DNA from: Escherichia coli
GTDB taxonomy: Bacteria > Pseudomonadota > Gammaproteobacteria > Enterobacterales > Enterobacteriaceae
DNA: 11,286 nucleotides
Assembly: GCF_003334765.1 (NCBI RefSeq)
Contig: NZ_QOWT01000056.1
Strand: one strand, 5' to 3'
Positions 193-422 of this stretch are shown here, one piece after another; the stretch's first letter is position 1, and each line of letters opens with the position of its first letter. The notes under the pieces are model-generated. The model ran no database searches. It was not told the DNA's origin and worked only from the letters and a program-made list of their open reading frames with translations. The translations under genes and the position numbers were made by a program.

Positions 193-208
193 AGTGACAT
201 CCATCACA
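193..208 (+). promoter_or_regulatory. CRP-family-like inverted repeat (distal), aGTGA-N6-TCACA
   Basis: Sequence AGTGA-catcca-TCACA matches 9 of 10 core positions of the CRP consensus TGTGA-N6-TCACA. It lies about 280 bp upstream of the ydeN ATG. Not scored against a matrix. Confidence 0.25.
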
Positions 209-406
209 TATTTATGCACTTGCATAACCTGTTGCATGATTATTTATGATCTCAATTCTGCATTTTGTCAGTAAAATGCAATAATTTATTAAATATCAAT
301 AAATTAGTTGTTTATCGGCGAGAAATTACTTAATAGAACAGAAAGTAATGTCAACGCTTTATGGACTGTTTTTTCCCTTTTTTTAGCTAAATCTGCTATC
401 TCTTTA

Positions 407-422
407 TGTGACTAACTTCACT
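407..422 (+). promoter_or_regulatory. CRP-family-like inverted repeat (proximal), TGTGA-N6-TCACt
   Basis: Sequence TGTGA-ctaact-TCACT matches 9 of 10 core positions of the CRP consensus. Its centre is about 73 bp upstream of the ydeN ATG at 488, a position compatible with a class I activator site if the transcription start is close to the ATG. Confidence 0.3.

Follow-up and report, generated by a model that had tools for sequence, protein, structure and literature searches.

The 401-bp gap between ydeO and ydeN in E. coli is best read as a multi-input control region for ydeN-ydeM. Two inverted repeats in this gap are both taken to be CRP operators. The one closer to ydeN would activate transcription from a class II position, and NagC would repress it. 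This reading as a whole is given a probability of about 0.6. YdeN and YdeM are an uncharacterised sulfatase and an anaerobic maturase in a gut bacterium, and the conditions under which they are expressed are the best available clue to the substrate.

CRP binding upstream of ydeN and a predicted activation of ydeN by CRP have already been published, so the CRP finding alone adds little. The repeat closer to ydeN is at most a further member of a very well known kind of site. What is added here is a map of the promoter. It contains a class II-positioned CRP-type site 5 bp from a NagC operator that lies over the -10 hexamer, a NagC-like site that recurs across genera, and repression by GadX and AraC. 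The map and the cross-genus conservation are useful and incremental, the NagC sites themselves being on record.

The window, that is the whole stretch of DNA that was analysed, is 11.3 kb of E. coli sequence in which ydeN, ydeM, yddA, yddB and pqqL all lie on the plus strand. Window positions are converted as NC_000913.3 = 1583012 minus window position, which puts the ydeN ATG (488) at 1582524 as in the MG1655 annotation. The intergenic region spans 87-487, and the ydeN Shine-Dalgarno sequence, AAGAGG, is found at 475-480. The features are collected in Table 1.

Table 1. Features of the ydeO-ydeN intergenic region and the start of the operon, in window positions.
Feature	Position	Strand	Source
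Hairpin with T-runs on both strands, 3' of the ydeO stop (84-86)	134-156		Terminator scan
Candidate third (distal) NagC site, TATATTTATTGAAATAAATAAGT; 3-bp overlap with the distal CRP site	173-195		Weight matrix
Distal CRP site, AGTGACATCCATCACA	193-208		Sequence, weight matrix, SELEX, ChIP-seq, Footprint-seq, conservation
GadX ChIP-exo footprint P10 (-233.5), immediately 3' of the distal CRP site	212-237		PMC4918353 Supplementary Table 3, coordinates converted
NagC operator 'ydeN2 middle', GTTGTTTATCGGCGAGAAATTAC	307-329		PMC3098098, weight matrix (8.8 bits)
GadX ChIP-exo footprint P9 (-69), immediately 5' of the proximal CRP site	374-404		PMC4918353 Supplementary Table 3, coordinates converted
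Proximal CRP-type site, TGTGACTAACTTCACT; CRP binding predicted	407-422		Sequence, weight matrix, conservation
-35-like hexamer CTTACA, weak; overlaps the end of the proximal CRP site	421-426	+	Promoter scan; invariant in Escherichia
NagC operator 'ydeN1 proximal', CTTATTTCTCTTCGTAAAATTAC; covers the -10	431-453		PMC3098098, weight matrix, cross-genus conservation
-10 hexamer TAAAAT of the ydeN promoter	445-450	+	Promoter scan; invariant in Escherichia
ydeN transcription start (G)	458	+	'Distance to TSS', Seo et al. 2015 Supplementary Table 3
ydeN (sulfatase; first gene of ydeN-ydeM)	488-2170	+	ORF list, RefSeq annotation

The left edge of the window carries the end of an insertion sequence. 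Positions 1-74 are the terminal 74 bp of an IS5-family element, identical at 72 of 74 positions to an IS5 copy beside a transposase gene. This end reads ...CTTATTCGCACCTTCC, with the target TTAG directly after it at 75-78. The insertion point lies 12 nt before the ydeO stop, and the last codons of YdeO are therefore replaced in this strain. None of 5,426 complete E. coli genomes gave a contiguous match across the junction. Several of them match from position 59 onward only, an indication of other IS insertions at this point.

The hairpin at 134-156 is terminator-like on both strands. Between the two CRP-type sites, the search for a small RNA gave no Rfam match at E<=1, and the ORFs found there are of just 22-35 aa, none of them supported.

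The two CRP-type repeats

The original prediction placed CRP-type repeats, each matching 9 of 10 core positions, at 193-208 and 407-422 in an AT-rich region, with the proximal one centred about 73 bp before the ydeN ATG. All of this holds on re-examination. Each repeat has one mismatch to TGTGA-N6-TCACA, the intergenic region is 68% A+T, and the centre of the proximal site (414.5) lies 73.5 bp before the ATG. The distal site is centred at 200.5, or 1582811.5 in NC_000913.3. The two are the only one-mismatch matches in the 11.3-kb window.

Weight-matrix scoring, proposed earlier as a check, also puts both sites in the range of bona fide CRP sites. The matrix was symmetric and was built from 106 ChIP-seq CRP sites of ETEC H10407, with the ydeN site excluded. 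The scores are 15.3 bits for the distal and 12.3 bits for the proximal site, which correspond to the 77th and 47th percentiles of the 106 sites, and the two rank first and second over all positions of the window. Both thus join a symmetric core to a score in the bona fide range.

Chance matches in A+T-rich DNA could in principle account for such repeats, as two one-mismatch matches arise in 9 of 200 dinucleotide shuffles of the whole window (mean 0.36). This explanation is effectively refuted. The exact per-position probabilities are 2.5e-6 for the distal and 2.5e-5 for the proximal site. Even at the region's own base composition only 0.001 and 0.01 such matches, respectively, are expected in 401 bp, so the repeats are not due to chance. 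In addition, binding at the distal site is proven, and the half-sites of both are selectively conserved.

For the distal site, high-affinity binding of cAMP-CRP in vitro and occupancy in vivo are shown in the literature. It was recovered by genomic SELEX in 2011 as AGTGACATCCATCACA in the ydeO-ydeN gap (PMC3105977), by ChIP-seq in ETEC in 2015 as the opposite strand, TGTGATGGATGTCACT, assigned to ydeN (PMC4287617), and by Footprint-seq in 2026 with a centre at 1582815 and an estimated Kd of 1.8 nM (PMC12871828). A semi-supervised study of 2008 had ydeN as its top new CRP target, predicted to be activated; ydeN is also found in Tractor DB (PMC2266799). The earlier suggestion that cAMP-CRP controls the sulfatase operon therefore stands as far as CRP binding upstream of ydeN goes. 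It overlooked NagC, GadX and AraC. Since NagC operators, GadX footprints and an AraC site share the region, CRP is one input among several. In the literature examined, no published effect of CRP on ydeNM transcription (in crp or cya mutants, or with glucose) was found.

For the proximal site, a search for published reports that name it found none. The Footprint-seq list of novel sites with a Kd below 10 nM does not include it (PMC12871828); 30% of the sites on that list have a lower CRP matrix score. One apparent piece of ChIP support was rejected. The ETEC peak at 1701402 seemed to lie 15 bp from the proximal site in NC_017633.1, but once a coordinate offset is corrected the peak falls at the distal site and is not shifted toward the proximal one. 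Three control loci, at which the paper's coordinates are 192-222 bp below those of RefSeq, put this systematic offset at about 210 bp.

The same offset concerns the published table as a whole. At 4 of 4 loci checked, the peaks in Table 1 of Haycocks et al. 2015 lie 192-230 bp below the motif positions in the RefSeq record of ETEC H10407 (NC_017633.1), so these numbers are not directly usable on that record.

Evidence for selection on the repeats can be obtained by comparing close relatives. The alignment held 13 sequences: 10 E. coli haplotypes (96-100% identity), two cryptic-clade sequences and E. albertii. When E. albertii is set aside, leaving 12 sequences, 36% of the columns across the intergenic region are variable, as are 5 of the 12 in the CRP spacers; the 20 columns of the CRP half-sites show no variation. 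The half-sites are thus more conserved than both their spacers and their surroundings. Invariant half-sites with drifting spacers are the pattern expected for recognition by dimeric CRP. In the proximal site all 10 half-site positions are invariant in the 13 Escherichia sequences, E. albertii included, and spacer position 414 is A, C or T depending on the lineage. The distal site of E. albertii is weakened to CATGATAACAATCACA (10.5 bits). The whole of 381-487 is highly conserved in Escherichia, and because of this the conservation argument for the proximal site is weaker than the raw numbers suggest.

An FNR-family regulator had also been put forward as worth considering, and here the prediction is not supported. 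The repeats would in that case be operators for FNR or for YeiL, the third E. coli protein of the CRP/FNR family, and the operon would be tied to anaerobiosis, in line with the anaerobic-type maturase YdeM. The half-site architecture is indeed common to the family, YdeM is a radical-SAM anaerobic maturase (PMC10878103), and the equivalent position in Mixta theicola, TTGATATATATCTT, matches the FNR consensus at 8 of 10 positions. This reading is considered very unlikely, and the sequence evidence against it concerns FNR. All four half-sites are of the GTGA/TCAC type, with the G that is characteristic of CRP at the discriminating position and not the T of FNR (TTGA). Measured against TTGAT-N4-ATCAA, the distal site has 3 mismatches and the proximal site 4, and three-mismatch matches to this consensus are hardly enriched in the window (89, against 71 expected from shuffles). 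The distal site is moreover bound by CRP itself, at 1.8 nM. No FNR binding or control at ydeN is reported in the accessible portions of the literature that mentions both, and an fnr-mutant supplement has no ydeN entry.

The ydeN promoter and its other inputs

A promoter scan of window 1-700 found a single sigma-70-like match, CTTACA-18 bp-TAAAAT. It agrees with the transcription start implied by Seo et al. 2015, which lies 8 nt 3' of the -10 hexamer and gives a leader of 30 nt. The start was derived from one published table, in which the GadX ChIP-exo peaks upstream of ydeN have a 'Distance to TSS' of -69 and -233.5 (PMC4918353). Both distances lead to U00096.2 1580578, which equals NC_000913.3 1582554 and window 458. 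The offset of 1976 bp between the two genome versions at this place agrees with the MG1655 annotation. It is confirmed by the FITBAR NagC coordinates 1580605 and 1580729, which fall exactly at window 431 and 307. The supplements of Kim et al. 2012, consulted as a second dataset for the start, have no ydeN entry or matching coordinate.

Relative to this start the proximal CRP site is centred at -43.5, and the -10 begins 30.5 bp downstream of that centre. Canonical class II values are -41.5 and 29.5 bp, so that the site is 1-2 bp off when measured from a start taken from one table. Its position is class II-like, and together with the conservation this indirectly supports the prediction that CRP binds there.

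A competing explanation restricts CRP to the distal repeat. The proximal one would then be conserved as a -35/UP region or as part of an AraC or GadX site, and there would be no class II activation. In its favour, all published binding data name the distal sequence only and the ChIP-seq peak is centred there. The GadX footprint at 374-404 stops 3 bp short of the proximal site, and the entire proximal promoter region is highly conserved. Against it, both proximal pentamers are invariant around a central spacer position that takes three different bases, which fits dimeric CRP recognition. In addition, the proximal site scores like the median bona fide site and not far from lac, and its distance to the -10 departs from the class II arrangement by no more than 1 bp. 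This explanation is considered unlikely, though it is the strongest of the rivals.

The distal site presents a different problem. With its centre at -257.5 from the start at 458, it is too far from the ydeN promoter for direct activation of class I or class II; class I sites are found at -61.5, -72.5, -82.5 or -92.5. Candidates for another promoter that it might serve were rejected. On both strands between 160 and 300, there is no conserved -10/-35 pair at class I or II distance. Measured from the constitutive promoter predicted in the SELEX work, TTGTCA-16-TATTAA (265-292), the distal site would be centred near -98.5 and face the wrong side of the helix; this promoter is not preserved in the cryptic clades. 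A leftward transcript from the distal site would run straight into the hairpin at 134-156.

These distances bear on a further alternative, in which CRP binds one or both sites without any effect on ydeNM, as at 'orphan' high-affinity or chromosome-shaping sites. In favour of this, 257 bp separate the distal site from the only mapped start, no well-conserved promoter was found at class I or II distance from it, the ETEC ChIP signal at ydeN is under that study's 'fold above threshold' of 1, and ydeN expression is very low in a published RNA-seq table. On the other side, purifying selection on the half-sites is evident while the spacers drift. Intergenic sites upstream of operons, to which both belong, are considered regulatory by the authors of the Footprint-seq study (PMC12871828), and activation of ydeN by CRP was predicted by a method based on expression data. 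Binding without effect is regarded as improbable.

In the preferred reading, with both repeats as CRP operators, the proximal site at 407-422 would be the activating one. CRP bound there would recruit RNA polymerase by a class II mechanism, as suggested by its centre at -43.5, its overlap with the weak -35 hexamer and its distance of 30.5 bp from the -10. By analogy with nagE-nagB, manX and chb, this would provide the operon with an input from catabolite repression. The distal site most likely helps to organise a nucleoprotein complex upstream, or else supports a minor promoter there; it may also make no contribution.

NagC is a proposed repressor at this promoter. Bound at 431-453, which begins just downstream of the proximal CRP site, it would occlude the -10. 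The operator at 307-329, 124 bp further upstream, probably acts together with it, possibly by looping. Repression would be lifted by GlcNAc-6-P. Both operators are on record as known, through a personal communication of J. Plumbridge in PMC3098098. NagC operators have TT/AA at +-5,6 and C/G at +-11 (PMC4288165). The operator at 431-453, C-TTATTTC-TCTTCGT-AAAATTA-C, is a 23-bp quasi-palindrome with both of these features. With a NagC matrix made from eight sites, the ydeN ones excluded, it is the best match in the window (17.7 bits). The operator at 307-329 has four variable columns within E. coli, all of them central (315-320), and its flanking arms are invariant. A third NagC site at 173-195 is speculative: the match is weak (10.3 bits, within the range of shuffled controls) and poorly conserved outside E. 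coli.

The second-best NagC match in the window, TATATTTCATATTGTTAAATGAT, lies elsewhere, at 3578-3600 (14.3 bits). It falls between ydeM and yddA, which are 290 bp apart, some 80 bp upstream of the yddA start, and may be a chance match in A+T-rich DNA.

GadX and AraC complete the set of inputs. Repression of ydeN by GadX has been published. AraC binds upstream of ydeN only with arabinose (PMC3738151), and ydeMN are over-expressed in an araC mutant. A search by eye for AraC half-sites in the ydeN upstream region gave nothing convincing. In the proposed model, this published repression by GadX and arabinose-bound AraC adds to that proposed for NagC.

Orthologous promoters in other genera

Among 100,044 species representatives, ydeN orthologues were found in Leminorella, Citrobacter werkmanii, Cedecea, Mixta, Grimontia, Psychromonas, Anaerobiospirillum and Fusobacterium. 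A promoter alignment shows the inverted repeat TTATTTT-N7-AAAATAA 37-46 bp upstream of the ATG in every Enterobacterales orthologue, and also in Grimontia. A NagC-type operator thus recurs at the position equivalent to 431-453 in six other genera, among them Leminorella, Citrobacter, Cedecea, Mixta and Grimontia. These sites score 15.7-21.7 bits, and each score is exceeded by at most 0.5% of shuffles. Upstream of the orthologues in Psychromonas, Anaerobiospirillum and Fusobacterium, a NagC-type operator is absent. Because of its conservation across genera, NagC control is the most conserved regulatory feature of the ydeN promoter. In Leminorella, a second strong NagC-type site is present 176 bp upstream.

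The CRP input is only partly conserved outside Escherichia. Elements equivalent to the proximal site can be found in Leminorella (TTTGAGACTCTTCACA, 10.6 bits with the CRP matrix) and Citrobacter (TGTGAGCTGATTCATT, 7.8 bits), in both cases 8-9 bp upstream of the NagC operator. Cedecea has a TGTGA half-site only, and the element of Mixta is FNR-like. As far as these sequences tell, the CRP-like element is weak in some genera and lost in others (Cedecea, Mixta) while the NagC site is retained.

The Mixta element deserves a separate description. In Mixta theicola, at about 2422-2437, CTTGATATATATCTTA has the form TTGAT-N4-ATCTT and no CRP-like core. One regulator of the CRP/FNR family may here have been exchanged for another.

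Two database entries were met during the comparison. The contig JARKOR010000108.1, from a MAG labelled 'Candidatus Nanosynbacter sp.', is 100% identical to E. coli ydeN and has both CRP sites; it is almost certainly E. coli DNA that was mis-binned into the MAG. The annotation of E. coli RMDEC364 gives ydeN as a frameshifted pseudogene, and the upstream regulatory sites are intact in this strain.

The protein itself can be placed by its relatives of solved structure. The nearest relatives of YdeN (488-2167) are S1_19 sulfatases and carrageenan (galactose-4-sulfate) sulfatases, at an E-value of about 1e-52. A GlcNAc-6-sulfatase (5g2v) is far more distant (about 6e-30), so the comparison with GlcNAc-6-sulfatase made in the literature is not the nearest one.

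A more far-reaching version of the preferred reading is possible, and is offered tentatively. Here ydeN-ydeM would be an ancestral, conserved member of the NagC (GlcNAc-6-P) regulon in Enterobacterales and one genus of Vibrionaceae (Grimontia), co-activated by CRP in the class II manner. The substrate of YdeN would be a sulfated amino sugar derived from mucin or glycosaminoglycan of the host. The distal CRP site would be architectural, bending the DNA within a multi-operator repression complex of NagC, GadX or AraC without contacting RNA polymerase.

Meaning and comparison with known systems

The practical use of the map is that it predicts inducing conditions: no glucose, the presence of GlcNAc or a sulfated amino sugar, no arabinose and no acid stress. 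It also points to mucin- or glycosaminoglycan-derived substrates for YdeN.

Pairs of CRP sites are known from the CytR-type tandem, in which two sites about 52-53 bp apart flank a CytR operator. This arrangement was considered for ydeN and rejected, the two centres being 214 bp apart.

The CRP site of lac, TGTGAGTTAGCTCACT, is similar to both ydeN sites in that 9 of its 10 core positions match and TCACT is its imperfect half-site. It scores 14.5 bits, compared with 15.3 for the distal and 12.3 for the proximal ydeN site. The lac site is class I, at -61.5, a spacing class that neither ydeN site shows with respect to the mapped start.

The proximal site more closely resembles the class II promoters galP1 and pmelR. 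As in these, a CRP site lies over a poor -35 hexamer, the -10 is recognisable, and the centre of the site is about 30 bp upstream of the -10. It differs from them in its exact placement (-43.5, and 30.5 instead of 29.5 bp to the -10), and in that its CRP binding and activation are predicted.

The closest parallels to the region as a whole may be the amino sugar systems nagE-nagBACD, manXYZ and chbBCARFG. From the work of Plumbridge and Kolb, these are said to combine activation by CRP with repression by NagC/Mlc through at least two operators, and manX reportedly has its CRP site at the class II position. By analogy, ydeN would share with them a NagC operator over the core promoter, another about 120 bp upstream, and one or more CRP sites between or beside the NagC operators. 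It is unlike them in having two CRP sites so far apart and in being repressed by GadX and arabinose-bound AraC as well. It also differs in its product: a sulfatase and a maturase rather than a sugar transporter or catabolic enzyme.
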